This document shows, one piece after another, positions 2,721-62,217 of a stretch of 64,000 nt of DNA. The first letter of the stretch is position 1, and every line of letters starts with the position of its first letter. The position numbers and the translations under genes were made by a program. The stretch is from assembly GCA_963709325.1 (NCBI GenBank), contig CAVPVV010000003.1, positions 4,358,638 to 4,422,637 on the forward strand, written 5' to 3'. The DNA comes from an uncultured Acidobacteriota bacterium. GTDB lineage: Bacteria; Acidobacteriota; Vicinamibacteria; Vicinamibacterales; UBA2999. Under the pieces are notes generated by a model. It did not search any database. It was not told the origin of the DNA and was given only the letters and a program-made list of their open reading frames with translations.

Positions 2721-2905
2721 CCACGCTTCAGACTCCAGGCTTCGGGCTTCAGACCTGTCACGCATGCGAATCATGCATCTGGCGCATGGGACCGTTGCGT
2801 CGCGCAACTTGAATCAGCTGCCGATCCGCCTGGCCTGAGGAGAAGCCTGAGCCGAACGCCAATCCGCGAGCCTGAAGCCTGAAGGCTAAAGCCTGAAGCC
2901 TGCTG
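2721..2905. repeat. inverted word-repeat element (GCTTCAG / GCCTGAAGC words) filling the spacer after the REC-PP2C gene
   Basis: Left arm 2725-2755 matches the reverse complement of right arm about 2870-2902 at 22 of 28 positions by hand alignment. The interior carries the GTTGCGtcgCGCAAC hairpin. Confidence 0.6.
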
Positions 2906-2916
2906 TTCGCCCGGCC

Positions 2917-2922
2917 TATAAT
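2917..2922 (+). promoter_or_regulatory. TATAAT -10-like box 9 nt upstream of the ATG at 2932 (possible leaderless transcript)
   Basis: Exact TATAAT in a high-GC context. The same TATAATTCyCC plus 9-nt spacing is seen at 37700. Confidence 0.3.
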
Positions 2923-2931
2923 TCTCCTTAT

Positions 2932-4729
2932 ATGCAGCGGACCGACGTCGGGAAGCCGGACTACTACCACAAGGTCGTCGACTGCCAGTGGGCCTGCCCT
3001 GCGCACACGAACGTGCCTGAATACATCCGGTTGATCGCGCAGGGGCGCTTCAGCGATGCCTACATCGTCAATCGGGAGTCGAACGTCTTTCCGGGGATTC
3101 TCGGCCGGACCTGCGACCGGCCCTGCGAGCCGGCGTGCCGCCGCACGCGCGTCGACGGAAAGCCCGTTGCCATCTGCCGTCTGAAGCGGGTCGCCGCGGA
3201 TCACAAGGACGACATCCGGGATCGGCTGCCGACCGCCCCGGCCGAGAAGAACGGGAAGAAGGTTGCGCTGATCGGCGCCGGACCCGCCTCGCTGACCGTG
3301 GCCAACGACCTGATGCCGCTCGGCTACCAGTGCACCGTCTTCGAGAAGGGGCCACGCCCCGGCGGCCTGATGCGCATCAACATCCCGGCGTTCCGCCTGC
3401 CCGAGGAAGTGCTCGACGAAGAGATCGGCTACATCACCGGCATGGGCGTGGAGGTGAAGTACGACACGCCGGTCACGAGCCTGCGCGGGCTGGTCGACTC
3501 GAGGGAATACGACGCGGTATTCGTCGGCAGCGGCGCCCCGAAGGGGAAGGAGCTGGAGCTGCCCGGCCGCCGCGACACGGATCAGATCTTCATCGGCATC
3601 GAGTGGCTGGAGTCGATTCATTTCGGTCACGTGGACACGGTCGGCAAGCGGGTGCTGATCATCGGGGTCGGCAACACCGCGATGGACTGCTGCCGCTCGG
3701 CCAAGCGGCTCGGCGCCACCGACGTCAAGGTCATCGCCCGCAAGACCCGGAAGTACTTCAAGGCCTCGCCCTGGGAGCTGGAGGACGCCGAGGAAGAGCG
3801 CGTCCAGATTCTCGAGAACCACTCCCCGGTCCGCTTCATCGTCGAGAACGGCCGGTTGACCGGGATGGAGTTCGATACGTTCACCGCGCATGAAGAGCAG
3901 GGCAAGCTGGTTCAGCAGCCGGCGGGCCGCACGATCGTCCCGTGCGACACGGTCATCCTCGCGATCGGCCAGGAGAACGCGTTCCCGTGGATTGAACGGG
4001 ACATGGGGCTGCAGTTCGACAAGTGGGACATGCCGGTCGTGGACAAGGTGACCCACATGTCCACGCGGCCGGGGGTGTTCTTCGGCGGCGACGCGGCGTT
4101 CGGCCCGGCCAACATCATCTGGGCGGTCGCGCACGGCCACCAGGCGGCGATTTCGATCCACAACCACTGCCAGGGCATCGCCGTCACGGAGCGTCCGCCC
4201 GACGGGCAGACGCTGACCAGCACCAAGATGGGGCTGCACGAGTGGGCCTACAGCAACAACTACGACCCGGTCGCGCGCCAGAAGATGCACCACGTCGAGA
4301 TGCCGCTGCGCTTCTCGAAGATGACGATCGAGGTCGAGCAGGGCTTTACCGCCGAGCAGACGAAACACGAGGTGGAGCGGTGCCTCAACTGCGACGTCGA
4401 GACGCACTTCACCGACTCGCTGTGCATCGAGTGCGACGCCTGCATCGACATCTGCCCGGTGGACTGCCTGACCATCATTCCCAACGCGCGACGAGCCCGA
4501 CCTGCGCGAGCGCCTGATGGCGCCGGCGGACAACCTCGAGCAGGCGCTGTTCGCCTCCGGACCGTTGAAGCAGACCGGCCGCGTGATGGTGAAGGACGAA
4601 AACGTCTGCCTGCACTGCGGACTGTGCGCCGAGCGCTGCCCGACCTACGCGTGGGACATGCGGAAATTCGTGCTGCAGCAGCCGTACGCCGGGGTGACCT
4701 TTATTCCGCTTGAAGCCGTCGGGCGTTAG
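2932..4729 (+). CDS. GltD-like NAD(P)H-dependent flavoprotein oxidoreductase with C-terminal 2x[4Fe-4S] ferredoxin domain, split by an apparent +1 frameshift near 4486-4490
   Basis: N-terminal Cys cluster region (CPAHTNVPEY, CDRPCEPAC) and dinucleotide fold VALIGAGPASL. First cluster CIECDACIDICP is in frame 1. Second cluster CLHCGLCAERCP is in ORF 4517..4729 (frame 2). The span is 3n+1. Confidence 0.85.
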
Positions 4730-4768
4730 CCGCTCCGGCTCCCGACTCCCGACAGCGACCGAGTTCTT

Positions 4769-6568
4769 ATGAGTCAGACCAACGATTTCGCGTTCAAGAT
4801 CGCCACGGCCAACGGCACCGGCTCGGCCAGCGCCAACGGCCTCATCATGCAGGCGATCTTCCGGATGGGCGTTCCGGTGACCGGGAAGAACGTCTTCCCG
4901 TCGAACATTCAAGGGCTGCCCACGTGGTACGAAATTCGGGTCAGCAAGGACGGCTACACCGCCCGCACCCCGGTCTTCGACCTGATGGTCGCGCTCAACC
5001 CGGCCACCTACGCGAAGGACATCGCCGAGGTGCGCGCCGGCGGCTGGCTGCTCTACGACTCGACGTGGCCGCTCGACGACGAGCTGAGGCGGCCGGACGT
5101 CACCTACCTGGGCGTGCCGCTCGCCGAGATGTGCAACGCCGCCTTCAAGGGCGTGCGCGAGCGCATCCTGATGAAGAACATCGCCTACGCCGGCGCCCTG
5201 GCGGCGCTCGTCGACATCGATCCCGAGGTCATCCGGGCGCTGACCAGGGAGAAGTTCTCGAAGAAGCAGTCTCTTCTCGATTCGAACGACAAGGCCATCG
5301 CGCTGGGCTACGACTTTGCGCGGAAGGCCTTTCAGTGCCCGCTGCCGATCCGGCTCGAGACGATGGACGCGACGAAGGACAGCATCCTGATCGACGGCAA
5401 CACCGCAGCCGGCCTCGGCGCCGTGTTCGCCGGCGCAACCGTCGGCGCGTGGTACCCGATCACGCCGTCGACATCGCTGATGGAAGCCTTCAAGGGGTTC
5501 TGCCAGAAGTACCGGCGCGACGAGGCGACGAAGAAGAACAAGTTCGCCATCATCCAGGCCGAGGACGAGCTCGCCGCGGTCGGCATCGTCATCGGCGCCT
5601 CGTGGGCGGGGGCGCGGGCGTTCACGCCGACCTCCGGCCCCGGCATTTCGCTGATGAATGAGTTCATCGGGCTGGCCTACTACGCCGAGGTGCCGGCGGT
5701 GCTGTTCGACGTGCAGCGGGCCGGCCCGTCCACCGGCATGCCGACGCGAACGCAGCAATGCGATCTGCTGCTGGCGGCCTACGCCTCGCACGGCGACACG
5801 CGGCATATCTGTCTGTACCCCTCGGATCCGCGAGAAGCATTCGAGATGGCTTGGAAGGCGTTCGACCTCGCCGAGCGCTTCCAGACCCCGGTGTTCGTGC
5901 TGAGCGATCTCGATATCGGCATGAACGACTGGATGGTGCCGCGGTTGCAGTGGGACGACAGCTACCGGCCGGATCGTGGCAAGGTGCTCTCGGCCGCGGA
6001 GCTCGAGCAGGCGAAGAGCTTCTCGCGTTATCTCGACGTGGACGGCGACGGCATCCCGTACCGCACCGTGCCCGGCGAGCACCCGAAGGGGGCGTACTTC
6101 ACCCGCGGTTCGGGCCACAACAAGTTCGGCGCCTACACCGAGGATGCCGACGAGTATCAGGAAGTGGTCGATCGCCTGGCCCGGAAGATCCAAAGCGCGG
6201 CCCGAGCCGTGCCGGCGCCGTTTGTCCGCAAGGCGGCCTCGTCCACGAAGCTGGGGCTGCTCAGCATCGGCGGCTGCCACGCCGCGTGCATGGAAGCACT
6301 CGACCAGATGGCAAAGGACGGAATCGCGCTGGACTACCTGCGGGTCCGCGGCTTCCCCTTCAGCGAAGAGGTGCGGAACTTCGTCCACCAGCACGACGTG
6401 ACGTTCGTGGTCGAGCAGAACCGCGACGCGCAGCTGCGTTCGCTGCTGCAGCTCGAGACCGGCGTCTCGATTGAGAAGCTCGAATCGGTCCGCTACTACG
6501 CGGGCTTCCCGATGAGCGCGCACCACGTCGTCTCCGGCGTGAAGGCGAAGCTCGAGGTGGCGGCATGA
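4769..6568 (+). CDS. korA: 2-oxoacid:ferredoxin (acceptor) oxidoreductase subunit alpha (fused gamma-alpha type)
   Basis: 599-aa intact ORF. It has an N-terminal gamma-like domain (KIATANGTGSASANG) followed by the alpha/pyrimidine-binding region. The stop overlaps the beta subunit start. Confidence 0.9.
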   Translation: MSQTNDFAFKIATANGTGSASANGLIMQAIFRMGVPVTGKNVFPSNIQGLPTWYEIRVSKDGYTARTPVFDLMVALNPATYAKDIAEVRAGGWLLYDSTWPLDDELRRPDVTYLGVPLAEMCNAAFKGVRERILMKNIAYAGALAALVDIDPEVIRALTREKFSKKQSLLDSNDKAIALGYDFARKAFQCPLPIRLETMDATKDSILIDGNTAAGLGAVFAGATVGAWYPITPSTSLMEAFKGFCQKYRRDEATKKNKFAIIQAEDELAAVGIVIGASWAGARAFTPTSGPGISLMNEFIGLAYYAEVPAVLFDVQRAGPSTGMPTRTQQCDLLLAAYASHGDTRHICLYPSDPREAFEMAWKAFDLAERFQTPVFVLSDLDIGMNDWMVPRLQWDDSYRPDRGKVLSAAELEQAKSFSRYLDVDGDGIPYRTVPGEHPKGAYFTRGSGHNKFGAYTEDADEYQEVVDRLARKIQSAARAVPAPFVRKAASSTKLGLLSIGGCHAACMEALDQMAKDGIALDYLRVRGFPFSEEVRNFVHQHDVTFVVEQNRDAQLRSLLQLETGVSIEKLESVRYYAGFPMSAHHVVSGVKAKLEVAA

Positions 6569-7620: not shown

Positions 7621-7733
7621 CCCGCCTGAGATTGATCATTCGCCGAGCGTAGTGAGAGATCCTGCGGTGCAAAGCACCGCCCACGCCGGCTCTCCGGCGC
7701 CTGCGGGGCGGAGCCGTGCCCAACGAGCGTGGC

Positions 7734-9711: not shown

Positions 9712-9725
9712 CGCGCGTGGGCACC

Positions 9726-9745
9726 AGGCTTCAGGCTTGAAGCCT
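9726..9745. terminator. 8-bp hairpin AGGCTTCA-ggct-TGAAGCCT between convergent genes, same word as element at 2721-2905
   Basis: Perfect 8-bp stem with 4-nt loop. It overlaps the stop of the minus-strand gene. No U-tract. Confidence 0.4.
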
Positions 9746-10889
9746 AGAGCCTTACGCTAACATCGCGCGTCGCGGCGTCGGGCTCGGCAAAGGCCAACAA
9801 GCGCGCCGCCTCCTCCTTCAGAGCACCCAGGTCTTTCTTCGACAGCCTGACGAAGGGCTCGAGCGTCAGCGTGGCGGTCTTGCCTTTCCGCACCAGCGAC
9901 CACGAGCCGGCGACGCTGCCATCCACGAGAAAGCATGCGGTGATCTGCAGGTTGCGGGTGCTGATGCGCGCCCGGTGCTCGTCGGCGATCACCCGGCTTC
10001 GGTCGTGGTGGCCGAGCAGCAGGTTGTCCCAGTCGGGCACGAGGCGAATCGGCGCTGGGGTGTCTTCTTCGGGTCGCGGCGCCTTCGGCAGATCGAACAG
10101 CTCGCGCTGACGCGCGTCGCGGAACGTGACCAGTTCCGGCCGCAGTCGCTCGAACACCGGCGCCAGCTTCGGCAGTCCCGACCAGGTCTGCGCATCGGCG
10201 ACGCTCGCCGGGCCGAACGCGGCGAGGTAGCGGCGCACGAGCGTGTCCGGCGCGGCGGCCGTCACGGGCACCGGCGCCTTCAGCCAGGTATCGGCGAGCG
10301 CGAAGTCGGCGGCGCCGGGATATCCCCATGTGATATCCGCTTCAGGCACCTGGACCAGCGGCAACGTCAGGCGGATGGCGTAGGCGAGCGACCGGATGTT
10401 GAGATCGGGGAACCGGGGTGCGAGGTGGTCGCGAATGGCATCGAAGGTGGCCGGCGCGGCCTTCAGGAACGCGCGCGTCGCCTTCTCGGCTGCCGGCAGA
10501 TCCATATCTCTGAGTGCCGGGCCGACGATCGAGGCCAGGCCGCGATCGAGCCCTGACTGGAGCGGTCCTCTCCACGCGCGATAATCGCGGGCCGACAGCA
10601 GGTGAAGGGTCCCGCGCATCGCCGTGACGCGGACGATGGTGCGGGCGTGGACCGCCTCGAGGAGCGCGGCACGCTCGAAGTCGCGGAGCCGGCTCCACAA
10701 GCCGATGAACGGCGGCCGCGGCAGTTGCGCCTGCAGGCCGGCGAGCTGCTCGATGGCGTCGAGCGGCGTGCGCGACTCGCGCGACAGGAGCATCTGCCGT
10801 GCGAGCAGTGCCCGGTTGAGCGCACGTTGGCTGAGCACGTTTGCCGACGCGCGACTGGTCTTTCCTGGTTTCGCCACCGACGCCGGCAA
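9744..10889 (-). CDS. winged-helix DNA-binding domain protein, YcaQ/AlkZ-like (putative DNA glycosylase family)
   Basis: 381-aa ORF. The N-terminal QRALNRALLARQMLL...LDAIEQLAGLQAQ pattern is recalled from the YcaQ family. Confidence 0.65.
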   Translation of the reverse strand: MPASVAKPGKTSRASANVLSQRALNRALLARQMLLSRESRTPLDAIEQLAGLQAQLPRPPFIGLWSRLRDFERAALLEAVHARTIVRVTAMRGTLHLLSARDYRAWRGPLQSGLDRGLASIVGPALRDMDLPAAEKATRAFLKAAPATFDAIRDHLAPRFPDLNIRSLAYAIRLTLPLVQVPEADITWGYPGAADFALADTWLKAPVPVTAAAPDTLVRRYLAAFGPASVADAQTWSGLPKLAPVFERLRPELVTFRDARQRELFDLPKAPRPEEDTPAPIRLVPDWDNLLLGHHDRSRVIADEHRARISTRNLQITACFLVDGSVAGSWSLVRKGKTATLTLEPFVRLSKKDLGALKEEAARLLAFAEPDAATRDVSVRL

Positions 10890-11346: not shown

Positions 11347-12885
11347 ATGCCCATGCATCGCTCTTCCTTGATCCGTCGCGCGATGGCTGGGCTCCTTCTC
11401 GGGCTGCTCCCGGCACTCGCCGGAGCGCAGGCCTTGCCCAACCTGTCGTTGTTGCGCGTCCGCTACAACACTGCGAAAACGAGCGCGAAGCCGGCGGGGG
11501 AGCTCAAGGCGCAGCTCGACGATGTCGACCGCGCGATCGCAGAGGCGTCACGGCTGGGGCGCAACGGCGAGGTGCGGCGGCTGATCGCCAAAGGGCTCGC
11601 GCTACTCGACGGGCGATCCTGGACACCCGAGGAGGAGTATCGCGGGTCGCTGGTGCTCCGCGCCGAGAGGGTATTCGCCGACGTTGCGCAGCCGTTCACG
11701 GTGCGCCTCGAGCAGATCTACGCGCCGGCGATCGAGCTCACCACGCCTCCTTCGGCCACCGTGACGCTCCGGCCGCTCCTCGCGCAGCCGGCGGGGACGT
11801 CCGAGTCGAGCGTTCTCACCTCGGTCGCCGACATCCCGCGCGATCTTCGCGAGTCGCCGCTCGTGCTCGATCTCGACGTGAGCAAGGCGCCTGATGGCCC
11901 CCACGAGCTCGTCGTCGAGGTCTCCCACGGCGGGCAGGCGGTCGGCCGGGTGACGATGCGGATGGCCGTGCAGCGCGGGCTCGACGCACGAGCCGCCGCC
12001 CTCGAGGCCGCGGCCGGGCGCGGGCCAGCAGCGGTCGCTGCCGACATCCGATATCCGCTCGACTACATGCGCAAGGTCAACCGCGGCCTGGTCGAGATCG
12101 GCAATTTCGATGTCGGTCGTGAGCTCGCCGCGGCTGAAGATGTGGCGCGAGCCGCTGCCGGCGGCCGCGATCCGTTCGCGGACCGCACCGGCGATTTCGA
12201 ACGCCACTATCTGCTGGCCGCCGCCGGCGAGATCATGCCCTACCGCGTCTACGTGCCCACCGAGTACGAGCGCGGCACGCCAACGCCGCTGGTCGTCGCG
12301 CTGCACGGGCTCGGCCTGAACGAAGACTCGTTCTTCGACAACTACCAGAGTGTCGCGCCGCGGCTTGCGGAGCAGTACGGGTTCCTGCTGGTAGCGCCGC
12401 TGGGATTCCGCGTCGACGGCTTTTACGGAGCGCGGCTGATGGCGGGCGGCGATCCGGCCGCCGCGCGCCGCGCGGAGCTGAGCGAGCAGGACGTGCTGCA
12501 GGTCGTGAAGCTGATGCAGGCGGACTACAGCGTTGATCCGGACCGGATGTACTTGATCGGGCACTCGATGGGAGCCATCGGTACCTGGGCGCTCGCGGCG
12601 AAGTACCCGGAAATGTGGGCGGCGGTGGCGCCATTCTCGGGCGTCGGAGCGCCGGCAACGGTGGCGGGGATGAAACACATCCCCGAGTTCGTCGTTCACG
12701 GCGACAACGATGCCACCGTCAATGTCAACGGCTCGCGGGCGATGGTCGAGGAGATGAAGAAGGTCGGCGTGGATGTGACCTACATCGAAGTTCCGGGCGG
12801 ATCCCACACCGACGTCGTCGTGCCCAACCTGCCGAAGGCGTTCGAGTTCCTGGCGGCGAAGAAACGAACGCCGGCTTCGCAGTAA
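11347..12885 (+). CDS. exported alpha/beta hydrolase (esterase/peptidase S9-like C-terminal domain)
   Basis: Signal peptide, nucleophile elbow LIGHSMGAIG, and later VVHGDNDATV and GGSHTD consistent with a Ser-Asp-His triad. Confidence 0.8.
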   Translation: MPMHRSSLIRRAMAGLLLGLLPALAGAQALPNLSLLRVRYNTAKTSAKPAGELKAQLDDVDRAIAEASRLGRNGEVRRLIAKGLALLDGRSWTPEEEYRGSLVLRAERVFADVAQPFTVRLEQIYAPAIELTTPPSATVTLRPLLAQPAGTSESSVLTSVADIPRDLRESPLVLDLDVSKAPDGPHELVVEVSHGGQAVGRVTMRMAVQRGLDARAAALEAAAGRGPAAVAADIRYPLDYMRKVNRGLVEIGNFDVGRELAAAEDVARAAAGGRDPFADRTGDFERHYLLAAAGEIMPYRVYVPTEYERGTPTPLVVALHGLGLNEDSFFDNYQSVAPRLAEQYGFLLVAPLGFRVDGFYGARLMAGGDPAAARRAELSEQDVLQVVKLMQADYSVDPDRMYLIGHSMGAIGTWALAAKYPEMWAAVAPFSGVGAPATVAGMKHIPEFVVHGDNDATVNVNGSRAMVEEMKKVGVDVTYIEVPGGSHTDVVVPNLPKAFEFLAAKKRTPASQ

Positions 12886-12925
12886 AAGAAACCACGAAGG
12901 GACGTCCCTTCGTGGTTTCTTTTTG
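12884..12925 (+). terminator. perfect palindromic hairpin AAGAAACCACGAAGGGAC/GTCCCTTCGTGGTTTCTT followed by T-run; member of the CACGAAGG word family
   Basis: 18-bp perfect inverted repeat centred at 12903/12904. It starts at the stop codon of the hydrolase gene. The trailing TTTTTGAC is identical to the end of the element at 17367-17499. Confidence 0.75.
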
Positions 12926-12943
12926 ACTGTGTACACTGCTCGG

Positions 12944-15892: not shown

Positions 15893-17365
15893 ATGACGTC
15901 TCGTCCGCCCCGCTCTAATTGGGGACTTTCGCTGGGTCTCGCTGCGCTTGCGTGCGGCGTGCTGGGGCTGGTGGCCCCGCTCGGCCTGCGTGCCCAGCAG
16001 CCGGCGCCGGCGCCAGCTGCCGCGGCTCCGGCGGTGACCTTTACGAAAGACATTGCGCCGATTCTGCAGCGCAGCTGCCAGAACTGCCATCGCCCGGGCC
16101 AGGTGGCGCCGATGTCGCTCATTTCCTACGAGGACGTGCGTCCGTGGGCGCGCGCGATCCGGCAGCGGACCTCGATTCGCGACAAGGCCGGCGCGATGCC
16201 GCCCTGGTACATCGAGAAGAACATCGGCATCCAGCAGTACAAGCACGATCCGTCGCTGTCCGACGCGGAAGTCGCGAAGATCGCGAGCTGGGTCGAGGCC
16301 GGTGCGCCGCGCGGCAACCCGGCCGACATGCCCACGCCGCTCAAGTGGGCGGACGATACGGCCTGGCAGATCGGCGAACCCGACATGATCGTGGACAGCC
16401 CCGAGATCGTCGTGAAGGCCAACGCCGCCGACTGGTGGGGCGAGCTGGAGCCGGTGAAGATCCCGCTGATGGAAGATCGGTACATCGCGGCGATCGAAAT
16501 CAAGGAAGTGAACGACGTCCCGAATGACGAGAAGGGCCGCGAGACGGTGGGCGGCCGCTATGTCTTTCATCACCTGATCTGGTCGGCGGCGGTGATCGAC
16601 GACAACGGCGAGATGCCCGAGAGCCAGGGACTCGGCCTGTGGCCGGTGCACGAAGTCGGGCGCAACGCCGACATCCTGGATCCCGACGCGGGGCGGGAGA
16701 TCAAGGCGGGCTCGAGCATCATCTTCGAGTCGACGCACCTGCACTCGAACGGGCGGGACACGAAGGCGAAGCTGCGCTTCGGCTTCAAGCTTCACCCAAA
16801 GGGCTACGAGCCGAAATACCGCAGCACGCTGCGCGCGCTCGGCAACGGGCTGGACATAGACATCAAGCCGAATGAGGCCAACCAGCAGCTGCACGCCTAT
16901 CTGGTACTCGACCGGCCGATGAAGGTCGTCACCTTCGAGCCGCACCTCCACGCGCCGGGCGCCCGGATGTGCCTCGAATACATCTGGGGCATCAACATCC
17001 AGACGGTCTCCTGCGCCGGCTACGATCACAACTGGGTCCGCCAGTACGAGTTCCAGGACGATTACGCGCCGCTGCTCCCGAAGGGCACGATCCTGCACAT
17101 CATCGGCTACATGGACAACACCGAGAAGAACAAGAACATCCCTGACCCGCGCAACTGGCAGGGCTCCGGCAATCGGTCCATCGCCAACATGTTCATCGAC
17201 CTCGGCCAGAGCGTGTCGCTCACCGAGGAGCAGTTCCAGCAGGAGATGGCGAAGCGCCGGGAGAACCGGAAGATGAAGAAGAACGACTTCTTCATCGACT
17301 GCCCGCTCTGCGGCGTGCCAGCGCCGCCCAAAACGACGAACACGGAAGTGCGCCAGCCGCAGTAA
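15893..17365 (+). CDS. exported cytochrome c domain protein fused to a PHM/DBH-like copper monooxygenase-type domain (function uncertain)
   Basis: AAGGAG RBS and a signal peptide. Heme motif CQNCH lies in TKDIAPILQRSCQNCHRPG. The downstream HH...H...HxH...M series (FHHLIW, STHLHS, EPHLHAPG, GYMDN) has PHM-like spacing. Confidence 0.75.
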   Translation: MTSRPPRSNWGLSLGLAALACGVLGLVAPLGLRAQQPAPAPAAAAPAVTFTKDIAPILQRSCQNCHRPGQVAPMSLISYEDVRPWARAIRQRTSIRDKAGAMPPWYIEKNIGIQQYKHDPSLSDAEVAKIASWVEAGAPRGNPADMPTPLKWADDTAWQIGEPDMIVDSPEIVVKANAADWWGELEPVKIPLMEDRYIAAIEIKEVNDVPNDEKGRETVGGRYVFHHLIWSAAVIDDNGEMPESQGLGLWPVHEVGRNADILDPDAGREIKAGSSIIFESTHLHSNGRDTKAKLRFGFKLHPKGYEPKYRSTLRALGNGLDIDIKPNEANQQLHAYLVLDRPMKVVTFEPHLHAPGARMCLEYIWGINIQTVSCAGYDHNWVRQYEFQDDYAPLLPKGTILHIIGYMDNTEKNKNIPDPRNWQGSGNRSIANMFIDLGQSVSLTEEQFQQEMAKRRENRKMKKNDFFIDCPLCGVPAPPKTTNTEVRQPQ

Positions 17366-17366: not shown

Positions 17367-17499
17367 AGAAACCACGAAGGCACGAAAAGCACGAAGGACG
17401 ACACGAAGACTTTTTTGGGGTGTCACGCGTGCTTCCCCAAAGAGATTTTGGCCTTCGTGGTTCCCTTCGTGTCCTTCGAGCCTTCGTGGTTTCTTTTTG
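17367..17499. repeat. long imperfect hairpin of the CACGAAGG word family with inner TTGGGG...CCCCAA hairpin
   Basis: Outer 14-bp perfect pairing is AGAAACCACGAAGG (17367-17380) with CCTTCGTGGTTTCT (17481-17494). Inner arms match at 21 of 30 positions. It ends with TTTTTGAC as at 12921. Confidence 0.75.
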
Positions 17500-17524: not shown

Positions 17525-18473
17525 ATGACGGGACGGAGTTTTGGGGGAATGGTCGCGATCCTGGGGCTGGCGCTCGCGATGACGCGGGCCGGCGCCGGGG
17601 CGCAGTCGCTCTCGTACGGGAAGGGGCAGAACATCTCGCCCGCCTTCGAGGGCTGGGAGCAGAGCGACGACGGGTCGTTCAACATGCTGTTCGGCTACAT
17701 GAACCGCAACTGGGAAGAGGAGATTGACGTTCCGGTCGGGCCGAACAACAACATCTCGCCGGGTGACGCCGACCAGGGCCAGCCGACCCACTTCTATCCG
17801 CGCCGCAACCGTTTCGTGTTCAAGGTCAAGGTGCCGAAGGACTGGGGCAACAAGGAAGTGGTCTGGACGCTGACCACGAACGGCAAGACCGAGAAAGCGT
17901 TCGGCACGCTGCGCACCGACTCGTTCGTCGACAACCTCGTGCAGGCCTCCGAGCAGGGCGCGCTTGGCGCCGGGATGAGCTACACCGGCAATGCGCAAGA
18001 ACCAGGCGCCCACCCTCAAGGTCGACAGCGGCCCGAAACGCACCGTGAAAGTCGGCGAGCCGGTCCAGTTGATGGCCTACGCGTTCGACGACGGGATTCC
18101 GCGGCCGCGGTACGGTCCCGGATCGCGCAGCGAAAAGTACTTCGATCGTCCTGTGCAGGGCGTCCACCCGTCGCAGCGCCCCCCGGTCGCGTTGACCGTC
18201 GGCAGCCAGACCGGCCTGCGCGTCTCCTGGTTCGTCTATCGCGGTCCGAACAACGTGGCTTTCACACCGGAGCAGACCAAGGTGTGGGAGGACACGCGCG
18301 CCGGCGCCAATTCGCCGTGGGCGCCGCGGTGGGTGGCACCGACGATCCCGGAAGACGGCCGGATCGACACCACCGCCGTCTTCAGCGAGCCCGGCACCTA
18401 CGTGCTGCGCTGCCTGGCTTCGGACGGCGCCATCCAGAACACCTACGACGTCACCTTCGTCGTCACGCGATAG
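17525..18473 (+). CDS. exported hypothetical protein with C-terminal Ig-like beta-sandwich region, split by an apparent +1 frameshift near 17993-17997
   Basis: Signal peptide and plausible sequence in frame 2 up to ...GMSYTGNA. Plausible continuation KNQAPTLKVDSGPKRTVKVGEPV... in ORF 17991..18473 (frame 3). The span is 3n+1. Confidence 0.75.
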
Positions 18474-18603
18474 GAGACAGGAGGTAGGAGAGGAAATAGG
18501 AACGAGAAGCCAGGATTTGAATGCGGATTCCCCGGGTCCTGGTTCCTGGCTCCCAGTTTCTAGTTCCTGGTTCCTAGTTCCTGTCTCCTGCCTCCTCTCT
18601 CCT
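18472..18603. repeat. long imperfect hairpin built from AGGAG/GGAAC words (left) and CTCCT/GTTCC words (right)
   Basis: AGGAGACAGGAGGTAGGAGAGGA (left) against the reverse complement of TCCTGTCTCCTGCCTCCTCTCTCCT is about 85 percent identical by hand. It starts on the stop codon and ends 22 nt before the next ATG. Confidence 0.65.
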
Positions 18604-18624
18604 GTTAGTGGCATACTTTCCCTG

Positions 18625-19813: not shown

Positions 19814-20782
19814 ATGCCGTCCCGCCGGACCTTCCTCGCGAGCCTCGCCGCCGGCGGCATGGGGACGGCGCTCTTCGGCCCGCGCCGCCTTCAGGCGTCT
19901 ACGACGCGCGATCAGCTGCGCTCGTCAGAGTTGTTCCACGCCGGGGCCGAGCTCGTCCCGACCGCGGCGACCGTGCGGGACGGCGAGGGCCGGCTCGTCA
20001 CCTCGTTGCAGCGCGAGGATTTCACCGTTTCCGAATCCGGCACCGATCAGCCCATCACGCAGTTCACGCGCGAGCGGGTGCCACTCAACCTGGCGCTGAT
20101 CCTCGACGTCAGCGACAGCATGCGCGGTCCGCGGATGGACGATGCCCGCCTGGCCGTCAAGACGTTCCTCGAGGAGTTGCTGAAGCCCGAGGACGAGGCG
20201 GCGCTGCTGGTGTTCAATCACGCGACCCACGTGCTGTCGAACTGGACGACCGACCGCGAGCCGCTACTCGCGGCCCTGGCCGACACGCGGCCGACCGGCG
20301 GCACCGCCATCTACGATGCGGTGAACACCGCCATCCCGCTCTTCACGGATCGGCGCCATCCCCGCGCGGCAATGGTGCTGGTCTCTGATGGTGCCGATAC
20401 TGCCAGCGACACGACCGTGATCGACCTCAAGCAGCGCCTGAGTCGTGGGGATGTGTTCCTGTACGGCGTGGCCATCGACACGCCGAACGCCCGATCGTCG
20501 CAGCGCATCAACCCGCAGGTGTTCCGCGAGCTGTCGGCCCAGAGCGGTGGCTACGCGGAAGTGATTGGGTCGACGGCGGAGATCGGTCCGGCCATGGCCC
20601 GCATCGCCGAGGAATTAAACGCCCAGTACATGCTCGGATATACCCCGGTCACCCCGGGAGATGGCCGATTTCGATCGATTCGCGTCTCGGTCGGCAAGGG
20701 GCTGGAGTATATCGTGCGGCCCGACGAGGCGTGTGCGGTGAGCGTCAAGTGCGGCGTTCCAGTTGATGCATTGATGAGTTGA
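19814..20782 (+). CDS. VWA domain protein (acidobacterial VWFA-related type) with Tat-like signal
   Basis: Twin-arginine SRRTFLASLAAGG. MIDAS DVSDSM. LVSDGADT. The tail RFRSIRVSV is typical of the TIGR03436-like family. Confidence 0.8.
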   Translation: MPSRRTFLASLAAGGMGTALFGPRRLQASTTRDQLRSSELFHAGAELVPTAATVRDGEGRLVTSLQREDFTVSESGTDQPITQFTRERVPLNLALILDVSDSMRGPRMDDARLAVKTFLEELLKPEDEAALLVFNHATHVLSNWTTDREPLLAALADTRPTGGTAIYDAVNTAIPLFTDRRHPRAAMVLVSDGADTASDTTVIDLKQRLSRGDVFLYGVAIDTPNARSSQRINPQVFRELSAQSGGYAEVIGSTAEIGPAMARIAEELNAQYMLGYTPVTPGDGRFRSIRVSVGKGLEYIVRPDEACAVSVKCGVPVDALMS

Positions 20783-39073: not shown

Positions 39074-39101
39074 AAGGCAGAAGGCAGAAGGCACAAGGCA
39101 G
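39074..39101. repeat. four tandem heptamers AAGGCAG AAGGCAG AAGGCAC AAGGCAG
   Basis: Read directly. It starts 5 nt after the stop at 39069 and ends 17 nt before the ATG at 39118. The related string GGCAGAAGGCACAA recurs at 49928-49956. Confidence 0.7.
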
Positions 39102-44450: not shown

Positions 44451-44551
44451 AGAGACGTGAGACGTGAGAGGTGAGAAGTAATTAGAAGGTGCGGAAGCTG
44501 CAAGGTTCGAGCTTCTCGCCTCTTACTTCCTCACCTCTTACTTCTTACTTC
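44451..44551. repeat. imperfect hairpin built from GTGAGA/GAAGTAA words with inner GAAGCT...AGCTTC hairpin
   Basis: It starts at the base after the stop codon. AGAGGTGAGAAGTAA matches the reverse complement of the right arm with one indel. It ends 33 nt before the next ATG. Confidence 0.65.
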
Positions 44552-44583: not shown

Positions 44584-44820
44584 ATGGCCGTACGAGGACC
44601 GATGGGCCGTGGCAAGCGCGAGCGCGAGCGGGCGCGGGCCGAACGGCAGAAGGAGAAGGCGGCTCGTCGCGAGGAAGCCAAGGTCCGCCGAGCGAACGCG
44701 CCCGGACACAGCGGAGGCGAGGACCCGGACATCGCCGGGATCGTGCCGGGCCCGCAGGCCAATCCGTGGGGAGACGAGGAGCCGCCGGACGAACCCGAAG
44801 ACGAGCAGCGCGAAAGTTGA
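44584..44820 (+). CDS. small highly charged hypothetical protein (Lys/Arg-rich N-half, acidic C-half)
   Basis: GGGAGG RBS 4 nt upstream. 78-aa ORF with low-complexity charged composition, so coding status is not certain. Confidence 0.5.
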   Translation: MAVRGPMGRGKRERERARAERQKEKAARREEAKVRRANAPGHSGGEDPDIAGIVPGPQANPWGDEEPPDEPEDEQRES

Positions 44821-44987
44821 CAGTTGGGCAGTTGAGAGTTGCCCGTTGAAGTTGACAGTTACAGGGACAGTTTTCAGTTAGCGCAGAGCCGAGCCAGCCC
44901 GATACCTCGCAAATCGAAACTGAAACTTCAACGGAAACTGAAACTGCGAACTTCAACTGGCAACTCTTAGCTCCCTAACGATCAACT
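44815..44987. repeat. long imperfect hairpin (about 65-nt arms) built from GTTGA/CAGTT words between convergent genes
   Basis: Core GAGAGTTGCCCGTTGAAGTTGACAGTT against the reverse complement AAGAGTTGCCAGTTGAAGTTCGCAGTT is near-identical with one indel. It overlaps the stop at 44818-44820. Confidence 0.7.
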
Positions 44988-45004
44988 TTCCGTCGTCGTC
45001 GCGC

Positions 45005-48182: not shown

Positions 48183-49973
48183 CTATGGCGTCGTCGGCGG
48201 AGGTACCCGCTTTTTGGTGAGCTGTTCGAAAGCGTAGGCGAGCTCAATCAGCCGTGGCTCACTGCACGCCGTCCCCGCGAAGCTCACGCCGTAAGGCGCC
48301 GGTTTGGGTTCGAAGCCGGCCGGCCAGGTCGCGTTCGGCGGCGCGTTCGGAATGGTCGCGAACGGGACGATCACCGTCGGGTAGCCCGGCTTGGCCGAGA
48401 TCGCCGCACCGCTCGCGCCGGGGAACAACAGCGCATCGAGCTTGTTCGACGTCAGCATCTCGTCGATGCCGTGAGTGCCGCCCAGGTAGATGTCCTTCTT
48501 CCGGTCCGCCTCCCACTTCGCCCGATCGCGCTCCAGGTCGACGTCGTCCGACACGTCGAGCTGGGCCTGGCCGTACTTGATCGCGCCCATGTTGGCGTGT
48601 GCCTGGTTCCACTCGCGCAGCTCGGTGAGCGACTTCACCGGCGCACGATCGCCGAGCGACTTCAGGTAGGCGTTGAAGTCGCGCTTCATCCCGTACTTGA
48701 GGGCCGACGAGCAGTTCGCGTCCTTGCCGTGGACGTCGTTCGGACCGGCGCAGGTACCCCACAGCAGGAAGTTGTTCTTCGGATCCTTGTCCACGATGCT
48801 CGGAATGTCGGCTTCGACGACCTCGGCCCCGGCCTGCTTCAACACCGCGATCGCTTCGTCCATCGCCTTCCGCTGCGCCGGGTTCAGTCCGCCGCGAGGC
48901 TCCTTCTCACCCGGCAGCGTGAGCGGATCGTAGAAGAACGCCTTGGGGATGCCGATCCGTGCGCCGTTCAGCGCGTCGGCCTTGAGGTGGGCGGTGTAGT
49001 CACGGTTCGGCGGCGCCTGGCAGGTGGTCGTGGCCGGATCGTTCGAGTCGGGCGACGGGCTCTCGAGCGCGCCGAGCATCGTTGCGGCATCGGCGACGGT
49101 CCGCGCCATCGGCCCTGCCGTGTCCTGATCGGCGGTGATCGGGATGACGCCGTATCGCGAGATGCGTCCGACGGTCGGCTTGATGCCGGCGAGCATGTTC
49201 TGGTTCGACGGGCTGAGAATCGAGCCCGACGTCTCGGTGCCCACGTTGCCGGCCCAGAAGCTCGCTGCCGTGCCGGTCCCCGAGCTCGAGCCGCCGGTGC
49301 CGAGCACCGGCCGACCGTCGTCGAAGCGGGTCGGGCCGCCGCCCGGTCCGCCCGCTGCGCCACCAGGGCCGCCCCGCCGTGCTCCCTGGGCCGCCGGCTG
49401 CGGGCCGCGGGGATCGCGGCGCGGATCGTACGGGTTGAAGCCGTAGCCCTTGAGGCCGTTGTAGTTGCCCGGCATGCCGTTGGCCACCCAGTTGGCGAGC
49501 TCGGTCATCATCGTCTTGGCGATGATCACCGCGCCAGCGTCGATCAGGTTCTTGGTCAGCGTCGCGTCATAGGGCGGGACCAGTCCGTCGAAGGCGAGCG
49601 CGCCGCCGGTGGTCGGCATGAAGCTCGTGTTGACGTTGTCCTTGAGCGCGATCGGAATGCCATGGAGGGGCCCGCGAATCTTGCCCTGCGCGCGCTCGCG
49701 GTCGCGGACCTCGGCTTCCTCGAGCGCCTTGGGGTTGACCTGGATCACGGCGTTGATGCCGTCCTCGTACGTGGCGATCCGCAGCAGGTACTGCGTGACG
49801 ATTTCGCGGGAGGTGGTGCGGCCGTCCTTCATCGCGGCCTGCATGTCGGCAATGGTCGCTTCGACGACGGAGAAGGGCGCTTTTTGTGCGGGTGCGGGAG
49901 CCTGCGGTTGACTGCACCCGGCGGCGAGGCAGAAGGCACAAAGCAGAAGGCAGAAACGGGCGGCAGCTCGCAT
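48183..49973 (-). CDS. exported amidase (amidase signature family), lipoprotein-type signal
   Basis: Start at MRAAARFCLLLCAFCLAAGCS. AS-family GGSSSGTG. A Gly-rich insert (GARRGGPGGAAGGPGGGP) lies upstream of it. Confidence 0.85.
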   Translation of the reverse strand: MRAAARFCLLLCAFCLAAGCSQPQAPAPAQKAPFSVVEATIADMQAAMKDGRTTSREIVTQYLLRIATYEDGINAVIQVNPKALEEAEVRDRERAQGKIRGPLHGIPIALKDNVNTSFMPTTGGALAFDGLVPPYDATLTKNLIDAGAVIIAKTMMTELANWVANGMPGNYNGLKGYGFNPYDPRRDPRGPQPAAQGARRGGPGGAAGGPGGGPTRFDDGRPVLGTGGSSSGTGTAASFWAGNVGTETSGSILSPSNQNMLAGIKPTVGRISRYGVIPITADQDTAGPMARTVADAATMLGALESPSPDSNDPATTTCQAPPNRDYTAHLKADALNGARIGIPKAFFYDPLTLPGEKEPRGGLNPAQRKAMDEAIAVLKQAGAEVVEADIPSIVDKDPKNNFLLWGTCAGPNDVHGKDANCSSALKYGMKRDFNAYLKSLGDRAPVKSLTELREWNQAHANMGAIKYGQAQLDVSDDVDLERDRAKWEADRKKDIYLGGTHGIDEMLTSNKLDALLFPGASGAAISAKPGYPTVIVPFATIPNAPPNATWPAGFEPKPAPYGVSFAGTACSEPRLIELAYAFEQLTKKRVPPPTTP

Positions 49974-54439: not shown

Positions 54440-55173
54440 TGCTCACCGCCCGCGCCGCGAGCTTGCCGTTGGCCGTCGTGCTTGCCCTGACGCTGCCTGT
54501 CCACGCGCAGGTTCCAGCGGCCCCGCAGGTGCCGGCACCTCCAGCCACGCTCCAACCGCCGGCGCCGGTACCTCCCGCGACGCTCCAACCGCCGGCGCCG
54601 CCGCGGACGCCGCAGGAACGCGGCCCGCGGACCTCGCTCGACGTGCAGGTCGTCATCGTTCGCACGCAAGGCGACAAGGCGATCTCACGCCTGCCGTACT
54701 CGCTCGAAGTCACAACCGGGATGCCCGAATCGCAGTTGAACATCGGTACCGAGGTGCCGGTTCCGACGTTCACCCCTGCTCGTTCTGCAGCCGCAAAACC
54801 CCAGGCTGGCGGGCAGCCAGGTGCCGGAGCCGGCCAACTGCAACCAGCCGCGCCAGCCGATCCGCCAATCGGACTTCCGCAGCCGATCCAGCCGGTTTCA
54901 TACAGATCCGTCGGCACGGTGATCAGCTGCCGCGCCTCGAACGGGGAGGGCGGCCAATACGAGATCGTGCTGTCGGTAGATGACAACGCGGTGCTGCCTC
55001 GTGATGCGGCCCCTTCGAACAGCGGGCCGGACCTGCCGGTGTTCCGAGCCTTCCGCGCCCGCAACACGCTCGTGCTGCGGGACGGTCAGACCCGCACGTT
55101 CACGGCGGCCGCCGACAGGGTCAGCGGCGAAATGGTTCGTGTCGAGGTCACGCTGCGCGTCCTGAAGAATTGA
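54436..55173 (+). CDS. exported hypothetical protein with Pro-rich tandem repeat and secretin-N-like beta domains
   Basis: ATGA overlap with the upstream gene, and a signal peptide. PPATLQPPAPV is repeated twice. The C-terminal pattern TLVLRDGQTRTF...VEVTLRVL is reminiscent of secretin short domains. Confidence 0.7.
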   Translation: MMLTARAASLPLAVVLALTLPVHAQVPAAPQVPAPPATLQPPAPVPPATLQPPAPPRTPQERGPRTSLDVQVVIVRTQGDKAISRLPYSLEVTTGMPESQLNIGTEVPVPTFTPARSAAAKPQAGGQPGAGAGQLQPAAPADPPIGLPQPIQPVSYRSVGTVISCRASNGEGGQYEIVLSVDDNAVLPRDAAPSNSGPDLPVFRAFRARNTLVLRDGQTRTFTAAADRVSGEMVRVEVTLRVLKN

Positions 55174-55183
55174 AGTCGCTCAA

Positions 55184-59915: not shown

Positions 59916-59972
59916 CGCCCGCGGCCAACTTCAGTCCCGGTTCGTGAGGCCTGCCCTGCACGAGCCGGATTC

Positions 59973-60011
59973 GACCCGGAGGATCGCGCGCCTCGATCCT
60001 CCGGGTCTTTT
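59973..60011. terminator. rho-independent terminator between convergent genes
   Basis: Perfect 14-bp stem GACCCGGAGGATCG / CGATCCTCCGGGTC, a 7-nt loop, then TTTT. Confidence 0.8.
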
Positions 60012-60030
60012 GTTAGATGAATGAAGATCG

Positions 60031-62217
60031 TCACCGCAGAGCCTTCTTTGCGGTGACTAAGTTTTGCTTTGCGTCGCCGAAGTCTGGGTCGATGGCGAGT
60101 GCCTGTTCGAACAGCGGAATAGCCTCCCGAATCTGGCCTTGCGACGCGAGCGCGATGCCGAGGTTGTTGAGGGTGCGCGGATCGCGGGGGCGGGAGGCGA
60201 GCGAGGCGCGAAACCGGGCGGCGGCCTCGGCGTGGGCGCCGATCTCCAGCAGCAGGCTGCCCAAGTCGTAGTTGGCGTCGGCGTCGGCCGGGGCAAGGGC
60301 GACGGCCTGTTCGAGCGCCTGCCGCGCTTCGGCGGATCGCCCGGTGGCCGCCAGGGCATTACCGAGATTGCGGTAGGCGAGCACGGAGGCCGGCTCCAGC
60401 GCGATGGCGTTGCGGAATTCGACGATCGCCGGCTCCATTTGACCTTTTTCGGCCAGCGCGGTGCCGAGATTGTTGTGGTTTGCCGCCGACGCGGGCTCGC
60501 CAGCGACCGACGTCGCCAGGTGCGCGGCGGCTTCGTCGGCGCGGTTCTGCGACAAGAGCGCGTTGGCCAGGTTGTAATGCAGGTCGGGGTAGTCGTCGTC
60601 GAGCCGCAGCCCGCGCTGGTAGGCGGCGATAGCGGCATCGACGTCGCCCTTCGCCCGTAGGGTCACGCCGAGGTTGTTGTAGGCCGGCGCGTAATCGGGC
60701 TGCAGCGCCACTGCCTTCTCGTAGCGGCTGACGGCCTCGTCGAGGCGCCCTGCCTCATAAAGCGCGGTGCCGAGGTTCGTCTCGGTGATTGCGCGCATCC
60801 GCGTCGGCGACAACAGCGGCCAGTTGGTTGCGATCGCCGCCACGATGACGGCGGCACCGATCCATGCGCGCCGCGCAGGCGATGCCGGCCTCAAAAGCCC
60901 CGGCAGCGAGACGACGCCGACGGCGGCAAAGAGCAGTAGAAACGGCACCAGCGGGAATCGGTAGCGCGCGAAGACGAAGAACAGCACGACGCTGGCCGCG
61001 TAGACGCCGAAGAAGGCCAATACTGGCCACAGCCGCCGCCGATCCGGCCACATCGCAATCAGCCCGACGAGCGCCAGCGGCACCAGGATCCCGAAGTGCC
61101 CGACCAAGGCGAGCGCGCGGAGCAGCGGTGAGACGTCCTCGTAGCTCTCCTGGCTCTCCGTGTCCAGCATCTCGCTCGCGTTCCACAGCAGCGCGAATTT
61201 TCTGCCCATCAGCACGGTCCAGCGACCGGGCGAGCTGCTGATGAAACCAAGCGCGCGGCCGCGCCAGTACGCCGAGACTTCGCCAGGCGACACGGGGTGC
61301 CCGAGCGCCCGCTCGGCCAGCTCGGTCGCGTCCTGCCGCTCGAACTCCGGCGCGCCGCGCCCCGGCCGCAGCGACATATAGGTGCCGTCGGCTCCGGGGT
61401 TGTTCCCGATGAAGAAATTGGGGCCGAACTGCGACGTCGTCAGGTAGACGCCGCCGTCGACCGCGTAATTGCGTGCGACGACCGGCAGCAGCACGAGCGA
61501 GATCCCGGCCAGGAGTGCCACTGCGGGAACACGAAGCACACAAAGGACGGTCTTTTCCTCGTGTTCTTCGTGTGATTCGTCTCCTTCGTGTTTCCCGCCC
61601 TTCGACACGGCCCAGATGATGGCGACCACCACTAACGCCAGCGCGTTCTCGCGCGTCAGGCTGAGCGCGCCGAGCGCCGCGCCGAGCGCCACCCACAGCC
61701 CCGGGCGCGGGGAGCCGGCAATCAACCGACTCGAGATCCACAGGGTCAGGCACATGAAGAAGACGTCGAGCACGGTCTTCTGCAGCAGCACGTCGAAGAA
61801 GATTGCCGGCGCGCACAGCGCCAGGCCGAGTCCGGCGATCCAGCCGACGCGCCGGGAGAAGAGACGTTCGCCAGCCTGCGCCAGCAGGACCGCCGACGCT
61901 GCGCCGACGAGAGCCTGGACGATGCGGACGATGAGCAGGTCGCGTCCCGCGATCGCGTAAAGCCCACCCAGGAAATACGGGTAGAGCGGCGCCTGGTAGA
62001 AGACGTCCGTTCCGATCCAGTCGCCGGCCGCGAGTCGTGTCGCCCAGGCGTCGTAGCTGCGGGCGTCACCCATCAGCACGTCGAAGAACGGCGTGCCCCG
62101 AATTGCCCACAAATGGACGAGGCGCGCCGCCACCGCGACCCCGAAGACGACCCCGGCCATCATGTCCAGACATGGTAACCGCGCGGCACTTTCGCCTTTT
62201 GTCGCGCTGGCTTGCAT
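60031..62217 (-). CDS. membrane glycosyltransferase-like (GT39/ArnT-like) protein with C-terminal TPR repeats
   Basis: About 11 hydrophobic helices in the N-terminal 470 aa (DARSYDAWA...YQAPLYPYFLG), then at least 7 TPR units (AxxYxNLGxAL pattern). The start could be Met19 at 62163. Confidence 0.8.
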   Translation of the reverse strand: MQASATKGESAARLPCLDMMAGVVFGVAVAARLVHLWAIRGTPFFDVLMGDARSYDAWATRLAAGDWIGTDVFYQAPLYPYFLGGLYAIAGRDLLIVRIVQALVGAASAVLLAQAGERLFSRRVGWIAGLGLALCAPAIFFDVLLQKTVLDVFFMCLTLWISSRLIAGSPRPGLWVALGAALGALSLTRENALALVVVAIIWAVSKGGKHEGDESHEEHEEKTVLCVLRVPAVALLAGISLVLLPVVARNYAVDGGVYLTTSQFGPNFFIGNNPGADGTYMSLRPGRGAPEFERQDATELAERALGHPVSPGEVSAYWRGRALGFISSSPGRWTVLMGRKFALLWNASEMLDTESQESYEDVSPLLRALALVGHFGILVPLALVGLIAMWPDRRRLWPVLAFFGVYAASVVLFFVFARYRFPLVPFLLLFAAVGVVSLPGLLRPASPARRAWIGAAVIVAAIATNWPLLSPTRMRAITETNLGTALYEAGRLDEAVSRYEKAVALQPDYAPAYNNLGVTLRAKGDVDAAIAAYQRGLRLDDDYPDLHYNLANALLSQNRADEAAAHLATSVAGEPASAANHNNLGTALAEKGQMEPAIVEFRNAIALEPASVLAYRNLGNALAATGRSAEARQALEQAVALAPADADANYDLGSLLLEIGAHAEAAARFRASLASRPRDPRTLNNLGIALASQGQIREAIPLFEQALAIDPDFGDAKQNLVTAKKALR
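61525..61596. repeat. CACGAAG-word hairpin element embedded in frame inside the GT39/TPR gene
   Basis: GGGAACACGAAG...CTTCGTGTTTCCC arms. On the coding strand it reads GKHEGDESHEEHEEKTVLCVLRVP with no stop. Codons were checked by hand. Confidence 0.7.

Follow-up and report, generated by a model that had tools for sequence, protein, structure and literature searches.

Hairpin-forming pairs of short-word arrays at gene 3' ends in Vicinamibacteria-type Acidobacteriota

We analysed a 64-kb stretch of DNA (hereafter the window; GC 0.67) from an uncultured soil bacterium of the Acidobacteriota (order Vicinamibacterales; GenBank assembly GCA_963709325.1, contig CAVPVV010000003.1), in which long imperfect inverted repeats, with arms built of a reiterated short word, fill spacers that follow genes. 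These elements are a real, abundant and clade-wide class in Vicinamibacteria-type Acidobacteria, and they are microsatellite pairs that form hairpins: first comes an array built of a 7-9-nt word, then a short core, then an array of the reverse-complement word. The gene map of the window was drawn from codon usage, and Pfam scans of 40 of its proteins returned ordinary housekeeping genes. The closest relatives of one of these genes, for a cytochrome c (15893-17365), come from metagenome-assembled genomes (MAGs) labelled Acidobacteriota/Vicinamibacterales and have 81-85% amino-acid identity, and a metagenome scan gave this gene no relative above 85%. For comparison, 164 sequences (1.9 Mb) were fetched around orthologues, and are named L001, L003 and so on.

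An earlier sequence-only reading of the window had listed seven hairpin loci and a one-armed copy at 39074-39101, and the inverted repeats are indeed there. When each locus was folded against 200 dinucleotide shuffles, five of the seven lay far beyond their controls (z = -8.2 for 12884-12925, -7.6 for 17367-17499, -6.1 for 18472-18603, -5.7 for 44451-44551 and -7.4 for 44815-44987), and two were weaker, namely 2721-2905 (z = -2.9 on the + strand and -4.1 on the - strand), where pairing is limited to the outer 31-nt arms, and 9726-9745 (z = -2.6 / -3.6). A further hairpin at 61526-61596 reached -3.5, and 39074-39101, which has no partner arm, showed no structure on folding. Values of -4.2 or below were found in just 6 of the ~43 window spacers, that is in these five loci and in a plain GC-rich hairpin at 59916-60030, and none of 60 coding controls fell below -4. 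Tandem Repeats Finder (TRF) called arrays of period 7-8 at all loci of the window, in agreement with the description of the arms as reiterated words; CACGAAGG occurs 12 times in the window against 2.7 expected, a count that none of 100 shuffles attained, and GGCAGAAGGCA, with one mismatch allowed, occurs 7 times against 1.0 expected. The lower GC that had been seen by eye was confirmed (0.45-0.61 in the elements vs 0.67 in the window), as was the closeness to the next start codon, measured here as 18-34 nt. The claim that each element begins beside the upstream stop codon holds, with the stop often lying within the first word, except at 9726, which is 14 nt from the stop of the + strand gene. 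Rfam gave no match at the gathering score, and at E<=1 just far-sub-threshold look-alikes of microRNA precursors; scans with promoter and terminator consensus models detected no element, and their totals were at shuffle level.

Word-repeat elements and arrays of the window, with their positions and gene setting
Position	Strand	Element	Setting
2721-2905		GCTTCAG / CTGAAGC element; outer arms 2722-2752 and 2872-2902 around a 119-nt core with small hairpins	directly after TAG of SpoIIE-domain gene (1845-2720); ends 26 nt before ATG 2932
9726-9745		minimal GCTTCAG-family member (GGCTTCAGG / CTTGAAGCC); 8-bp stem, one word per arm	in 32-nt convergent spacer; overlaps stop of - strand AlkZ-like gene (9744-10889)
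12884-12925		shortest CACGAAGG element; perfect 20+20 palindrome with A-tract and T-tract (AAAAGAAACCACGAAGGGAC, GTCCCTTCGTGGTTTCTTTT)	takes in TAA of esterase gene; ends 18 nt before ATG 12944
17367-17499		long CACGAAGG element; ~4 words per arm; termini as at 12884 (AGAAACCACGAAGG ... CCTTCGTGGTTTCTTTTTGAC)	between cytochrome-c gene (stop at 17365) and ATG 17525
18469-18605		AGGAGAC/AGGAAC (5' arm), GTCTCCT/GGTTCCT (3' arm) element	stop TAG (18471-18473) belongs to first word (TAGGAGA at 18471); ends 21 nt before ATG 18625
20761-20782	+	short (A/G)TTGATG-type array; added member	overlaps TGA of VWA gene
39074-39101	+	one-armed AAGGCAG x4 array; coding strand G-rich	4 nt after TGA of M48-peptidase gene
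44451-44551		GTGAGAC/GAAGTAA (5' arm), CTTACTTC/CTCACCT (3' arm) element	directly after TAA of RRM-protein gene (44103-44450)
44812-44990		CAGTTGA (5' arm), TCAACTG/GAAACTG (3' arm) element; arms collinear, 53 nt, 81% complementary	convergent spacer; first word holds TGA stop of small ORF 44586-44820 (AGTTGAC at 44818)
49927-49955		one-armed AAGGCAG-type array; added member	- strand translation in amidase signal peptide
61526-61596		CACGAAGG hairpin; added member	in-frame in PMT_2/TPR glycosyltransferase gene (60031-62217, - strand)

The further copies that the sequence-only reading had suggested looking for exist: with many words, the architecture of word arm, core and inverted arm recurs in at least 27 Vicinamibacteria-like loci of the comparison set, and it was not detected in the Bryobacteraceae, Gemmatimonadales or Pseudohongiella loci of that set. 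Recurring words include CACGAAGG, CACAGAGA/CACGGAGA, AAGGCAG, GGTTCTC/GGTTCAG, AGGGATC, GAATGAC, TCAGTTG and GATCTGGT, there are ~54 different words among 60 stop-abutting arrays, and the modal period, taken from 1.3 Mb of related loci, is 7. A census of spacers was restricted to arrays that have a period of 7-8, 2.8 copies or more and a word GC not above 0.67. Such arrays were present in 61 of 449 tandem spacers, in 17 of 123 convergent ones and in 4 of the 174 divergent ones (Fisher p = 3e-6), so that divergent spacers were occupied in 2.3% of cases vs ~13.7% for tandem and convergent ones, or about nine-fold less often per kb. Wholly within called genes lay 12 of 127 arrays, while ~90% of the sequence is coding, and 36 of the 113 array ends that face a gene 3' end (32%) fall between -6 and +5 nt relative to the stop. 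An inverted partner was found within 350 nt for 82 of 125 arrays by a loose, noisy test for word-like matches with one mismatch allowed, the true share being lower, roughly half, and the coverage measure by which arm lengths were compared (rho = -0.05) was too noisy to speak for or against a correlation. Elements can be nested or layered: L018 (8960-9130) has a CACGAAGG hairpin in the loop of a CACAGAGA hairpin, L026 (3270-3530) a multi-layer GAACC/GGTTC structure with alternative pairings, and L083 (7506-7557) a GGGTCTT array within a hairpin loop. In L008 (3334-3536) a stop codon is followed by telomere-like 8-mer arrays, which read TTTAGGGG / CTTAGGGG on the coding strand. Five MAGs of the set (L004, L012, L017, L019 and L020) have Vicinamibacteria-like orthologues, yet are labelled Bifidobacteriaceae, Acidimicrobiia or Cyanobacteriota, probably through mis-binning or mis-naming.

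The arrays are also oriented relative to the genes, a rule that had not been noticed before. Beside a stop codon, G exceeded C on the coding strand of that gene in 48 arrays and fell below it in 8 (p = 5e-8), with a purine-rich coding strand in 47:11, and for arrays at -8 to +5 nt of the stop the G:C balance was 27:1. Among 68 two-armed elements the G-richer arm was the 5' one in 49 vs 19 (p = 4e-4), and every CACGAAG element runs CACGAAG...CTTCGTG, the opposite order never being seen. Because such a palindrome is identical on both strands, the G-rich arm is made first in either direction of transcription. Stop triplets within the words were considered as the driver of this polarity and set aside, as 26 words have one on the sense strand and 19 on the antisense strand (p = 0.28) and stop-free words still gave 10:3; they may still decide which words survive within genes.

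Comparison of orthologous spacers revealed both persistence and gain or loss. In two spacers an element has been retained between species that share 81-85% amino-acid identity, with word, copy number and loop all altered. After the cytochrome gene, a CACGAAGG hairpin is present in the window, L082, L083 and L003/L084, an AAGGCAG hairpin in L001 and L021, and nothing in six relatives that stand further off. The window and L082 have the right end GGTTTCTTTTT(T)GACAG in common and differ in word numbers and loops, and the hairpin of L083 has a GGGTCTT array in its loop. The same spacer of L008 (~11460-11580) is taken up by another type of repeat, three 37-nt units in tandem, in each of which there is a small hairpin (GGTCCGGCTTTAGCCGGACC-like). 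In the next spacer the element always starts at the TAG and is made of AGGAGAC in the window and L082, CAGGAAT/CAGGAGT in L083, AGGGATC in L003, GGTTCTC in L021 and GGTTCAGC in L013, with a short remnant in L001. The gene between these two spacers (17525-18473 in the window) is split by a frameshift near 17979-17990, its N-terminal half running from 17525 in one frame and its C-terminal half (17979-18473) in another, and is either a pseudogene or an assembly error. The two arms in L082 differ by one base in every word (GAGACAG vs GAGGCAG) and, since this difference is consistent, each arm has been homogenised on its own. Slippage alters arrays one word at a time: over 5.9 kb L003 and L084 share 99.2% identity, and of the only two indels between them one is a single 7-nt word of an AAGGCAG array. 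Whole arms can be lost as well, as in L105, which is 98.4% identical to L062 and lacks the entire G-rich arm and loop (~200 nt). A whole hairpin is gained in L081, a sequence with 93% nucleotide identity to the window, where a ~240-nt hairpin of GATCTGGT words (5545-5780) sits between the TAA of the glycosyltransferase gene and ATGACGCGG and is missing in the window, L162 and L163. This insert is hairpin throughout, and against the uninterrupted empty site of L162 and L163 it has no target-site duplication, in line with what the sequence-only reading had stated for the window; its words are already degenerate, which suggests copying from an older element and not growth on the spot. A plain GC-rich hairpin (GACCCGGAGGATCG...CGATCCTCCGGGTC) lies between the convergent genes in the window (59975-60010), in L081 (5805-5840), in L162 and in L163, is kept in all four with compensatory changes and looks like an ordinary terminator. 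Since it is conserved just downstream of the word element of L081, the latter is not needed there as the sole 3' structure.

Some copies are translated. The window copy at 61526-61596 encodes GKHEGDESHEEHEEKTVLCVLRVP, in a loop of the glycosyltransferase that is hypervariable among orthologues (10 to 87 residues in 84 of them) and that in several reads HEGHEG...LRVLRV, the translation of CACGAAGG and CCTTCGTG. Read from the sequence, CACGAAGG and AAGGCAG have zero stop triplets in any frame on either strand, which fits their survival in coding sequence. The array at 49927-49955, on the - strand, encodes the hydrophobic core and lipobox (MRAAARFCLLLCAFCLAAGC; FCLLLCAFCLAAGC) of the lipoprotein signal peptide of the amidase gene 48183-49973, where an AAGGCAG-type repeat word has thus come into use as coding sequence. 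The orthologue of the VWA gene in L003 has an earlier stop, followed by a 262-nt hairpin of (A/G)TTGATG-type words. Two further observations were made in the window. The putative ORF at 44586-44820, 3' of the RRM gene, is small and highly charged (MAVRGPMGRGKRERERARAERQKEKAARREE...), has word hairpins on both flanks and gave no Pfam match; a 33-nt tandem repeat at 54523-54600 (2.4 copies, 88% match) lies in 54440-54918, a region with no confident gene call.

We hypothesise, with a probability of roughly 50%, that the elements are transcribed stem-loops of gene 3' ends, built and remodelled by slippage, and that they belong with the G-rich heptamer repeats known from Xanthomonas and Nostoc. The element would be co-transcribed with the upstream gene, so that its G-rich arm would emerge first and the C-rich arm would then pair with it, and the long stem-loop could define or protect the mRNA 3' end, either in the manner of a terminator or as a barrier to 3' exonucleases. 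Pairing of the arms would at the same time keep C-rich RNA from Rho, and the G-first polarity and the avoidance of spacers that hold only promoters could both be due to the paired C-rich arm never being exposed to Rho. This hypothesis is favoured by the folding of the five strong loci, the recurrence across the lineage, the placement at the 3' ends of genes, the orientation relative to the gene, the persistence at orthologous spacers, the one-word indel between L003 and L084, the A- and T-tracts of the CACGAAGG family and the parallel in Xanthomonas. In the window, -10-like hexamers follow several elements 6-9 nt before the starts (TATAAT at 2917-2922, TACACT at 12932-12937 and CATACT at 18612-18617), and such hexamers lie ~25-30 nt before the start in L062 (~9620) and L105 (~1010). 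Because they are located between the stop codon and these hexamers, the elements stand where a terminator belongs, and the window genes downstream of them may have next to no leader or none, their promoters beginning where the element ends.

Several points weigh against this interpretation. The U-tract is confined to the CACGAAGG family, with T-tracts at 12884, at 17367 and in the L082 orthologue and none at 2721, 18472, 44451 or 44815, and we infer transcription, 3' ends and effects on stability or termination from the DNA sequence. G.U pairs numbered 72 in the sense vs 81 in the antisense orientation and the sense strand was the more stable in 10 of 24 elements, so that this comparison of G.U pairs and minimum free energy between strands gives no support to selection at the RNA level. 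In L082 every word has one A.C mismatch between the arms on the sense strand. At the L081 locus the gene is already followed by a conserved GC-rich hairpin, next to which the word element is an optional extra, and the copies inside genes and the clean insertion of an already degenerate 240-nt element look more like selfish or neutral DNA.

Alternatively, the elements could be non-autonomous mobile hairpins, comparable to repetitive extragenic palindromes (REPs) and their hairpin doublets (REPINs), to transposable elements of the miniature inverted-repeat type (MITEs) or to Rickettsia palindromic elements (RPEs), copied in trans after stops and into hairpin loops by an enzyme whose gene lies elsewhere in the genome, with any effect on RNA being incidental. 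We regard this as the main rival and a real possibility, though a clearly less probable one. The clean 240-nt gain in L081, with intact empty sites in two relatives, no target-site duplication and words that are already degenerate and thus probably copied from an older element, speaks for such copying, and elements nested in the loops of other elements, as well as in-frame copies within genes, are compatible with it, as REPs too supply stops and occur in ORFs. Moreover, CACGAAGG elements across loci and species have a common head, GAAAC(C)ACGAAGG ... CCTTCGTGGTTTC, and one fixed arrangement. On the other hand, the diversity of words at stop codons is hard to square with a sequence-specific transposase, and no transposase was found by Pfam among the 40 window proteins, as the sequence-only reading had also noted, nor do the elements have GTAG or CGTC tags. 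BLAST between loci gave no similarity outside the words, a result that is uninformative at <=64 kb per genome. Orthologous spacers keep their elements by descent while the words drift, and the clean gain was seen once only.

The elements could also be a neutral by-product of mutation: replication slippage would expand units of 7-8 nt, template switching would make or repair the inverted arm, and the products would be retained only in places where they are harmless, namely 3' spacers and disordered protein loops. The one-word indel between the near-identical L003 and L084, the loss of a whole arm between L062 and L105, the modal period of 7 and the separate homogenisation of the L082 arms all have the appearance of such replication errors, to which the heptamer excess has been ascribed before (polymerase slippage; PMC4692102, discussion), and neither the missing folding advantage of the sense strand nor the dispensability of an element beside a plain terminator-like hairpin speaks for a function. 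Nevertheless, replication errors by themselves would not lead one to expect a G-first polarity of 27:1 relative to the gene or the depletion in divergent spacers, and purifying selection would have to supply both. Identical words also recur at unrelated loci, and elements persist in the same spacer across 81-85% amino-acid identity despite the deletion bias of bacteria. We find this explanation rather unlikely.

A more speculative idea, to which we assign little credence, is that the polarity is the footprint of a dedicated, word-agnostic process acting on DNA that installs whole hairpins directly 3' of stop codons, and not the outcome of slippage combined with selection. It is suggested by the G-rich words running 5' to 3' towards the centre on both strands, by the clean insertion and by the dozens of words involved. 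Candidates may be a single-strand transposition system that recognises structure, or a telomerase-like or reverse-transcriptase activity that, at a break, reiteratively adds copies of a short template to each of the two 3' ends; once these were joined, the product would be exactly a word arm, a core and an inverted word arm.

It could also be considered that the arrays are binding sites read word by word, for example Shine-Dalgarno-like purine words that hold ribosomes after termination, with the hairpin placing the stop codon beside the start codon that follows and so aiding re-initiation in a shunt-like manner. The stem begins, at its 5' base, 0-5 nt from the stop, its 3' base is 18-34 nt away from the next start, many 5'-arm words resemble AGGAG, GGAG or AAGG, the coding strand is purine-rich, and a role in translation has been proposed for the TAACTGA heptamer repeats (PMC4679880). 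However, many words are not Shine-Dalgarno-like (CAGTTGA, GCTTCAG, GGTTCTC), arrays are equally frequent in convergent spacers, which offer no following gene for coupling, a -10 box seems to be present for several downstream genes themselves, and the word diversity is at odds with a single binding protein. We consider this a very improbable explanation. Formation of G-quadruplexes or i-motifs, as proposed for the Xanthomonas and Nostoc repeats, is the least credible of all: the recurrent AGGGATC word of L003, L084, L045 and L057 has G-triplets and resembles GGGAATC, and the G-rich polarity is general, but four GGG tracts are offered by no window word and by few words of the catalogue, and position, polarity and pairing are nonetheless alike. 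For the window words CACGAAGG, AAGGCAG, AGGAGAC, GTGAGAC, CAGTTGA and GCTTCAG, which have no GGG tracts, quadruplexes were rejected. Phase variation was judged unlikely, the neighbouring genes being ordinary housekeeping genes, and intrastrand-triplex repeats (PMC4666352) have a different motif.

At a density of about one per 7-10 kb, several hundred elements would be present in a genome, and they would shape operon expression, make variable protein loops and C-termini, and complicate the assembly and annotation of an abundant, little-studied soil lineage. Compared with known systems, they share with intrinsic terminators a stem-loop right after the stop codon, and the CACGAAGG family has A- and T-tracts as in bidirectional terminators, but the stems are 20-80 bp long, imperfect, below the genome in GC and mostly without a U-tract, and a terminator scan misses them. 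The RPEs, palindromic families of 100-150 nt with conserved sequence from a different lineage, are inserted in-frame and translated in insertion-tolerant regions and have no tandem-word arms; the CACGAAGG copy that is translated in-frame in the loop of the glycosyltransferase resembles them. Unlike a MITE, the one clean insertion (L081 5545-5780) made no target-site duplication.

The REPs and their composites, bacterial interspersed mosaic elements (BIMEs), had been proposed as the functional analogy. REPs have been reported to associate with the 3' ends of genes, to keep clear of divergent spacers, to contribute stop codons and in some cases to lie in ORFs (PMC3733652). The elements described here behave in the same way, as palindromes after genes or between cistrons that supply stops, have copies in ORFs, insert without target duplication and occur singly, paired or clustered, as do REP, BIME and REPIN sequences, but they are not members of these families. 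REPs are 20-40 nt long with a GTAG or CGTC head, fall into one or a few sequence types per genome, have non-tandem arms and are served by a cognate Y1 transposase (REP-associated tyrosine transposase, RAYT), of which there is none among the 40 proteins scanned in these 64 kb of a ~4.6-Mb genome, whereas our elements are 40-240 nt long and the sequences read show no such tag at their termini. Another set of heptamers, the TAACTGA repeats of Beggiatoaceae, cyanobacteria and Bacteroidetes, is intergenic with 2-43 copies (MacGregor 2015, PMC4679880). Units like TAACTGA are the reverse complement of the TCAGTTA/TCAGTTG word family described here (window 44815, L057 18402), but the arrays of TAACTGA are almost always direct (1 indirect in 170) and lie just upstream of start codons (PMC4679880), while those described here are inverted and follow stops.

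The closest match lies in the G-rich heptamers of Xanthomonas (GGGAATC) and Nostoc (GGGGAYT), so that the statement of the sequence-only reading that no described family was recognisable does not stand as regards the type of element, inverted pairs of such repeats having been reported already (PMC4692102); on Acidobacteria, our search found no paper about such elements in the library covered. These heptamers overlap stops or lie within 50 bp of them, and divergent ORFs seldom have them in between (Rehm et al. 2015, PMC4692102). In Xanthomonas they are G-rich on the coding strand at 0-50 bp after stops, transcribed, variable between close species and not linked to insertion sequences, and each genome has 70-75 convergent inverted pairs capable of forming stem-loops; for both genera a strong non-coding bias was reported and a role as G-quadruplexes proposed (PMC4692102). 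The same source cites the short tandemly repeated repetitive (STRR) heptamers of cyanobacteria and the excess of heptameric simple sequence repeats noted by Mrazek 2007 (as cited in PMC4692102). The Acidobacteriota elements have in common with the Xanthomonas and Nostoc repeats the head-to-tail units of ~7 nt in variable copy number, as called by TRF, the G-rich coding strand near the stop (48:8; 27:1), the scarcity in divergent spacers and coding sequence, the convergent inverted pairs and the occurrence in the same neighbourhoods with differing lengths in close species. They differ in the size of the units, here 7-9 nt, in that about half of the arrays are paired into hairpins of up to ~240 nt that are sometimes nested, in that some copies are translated within genes, and in the host phylum, Acidobacteriota (Vicinamibacteria). 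Above all, one quadruplex-capable word dominates a genome there, whereas here there are dozens of words, mostly quadruplex-incapable: the four or more GGG tracts required are absent from the window words, and only the AGGGATC family of some relatives has GGG at all. That heptamers are in excess in the intergenic DNA of bacteria has been on record since 2007, and the one detailed study of this excess invoked G-quadruplexes. That dozens of words incapable of forming them obey the same rules of position makes the phenomenon separable from the quadruplex idea, and points to a general feature either of transcript 3' ends, such as hairpins and the avoidance of Rho, or of the way in which such arrays originate.

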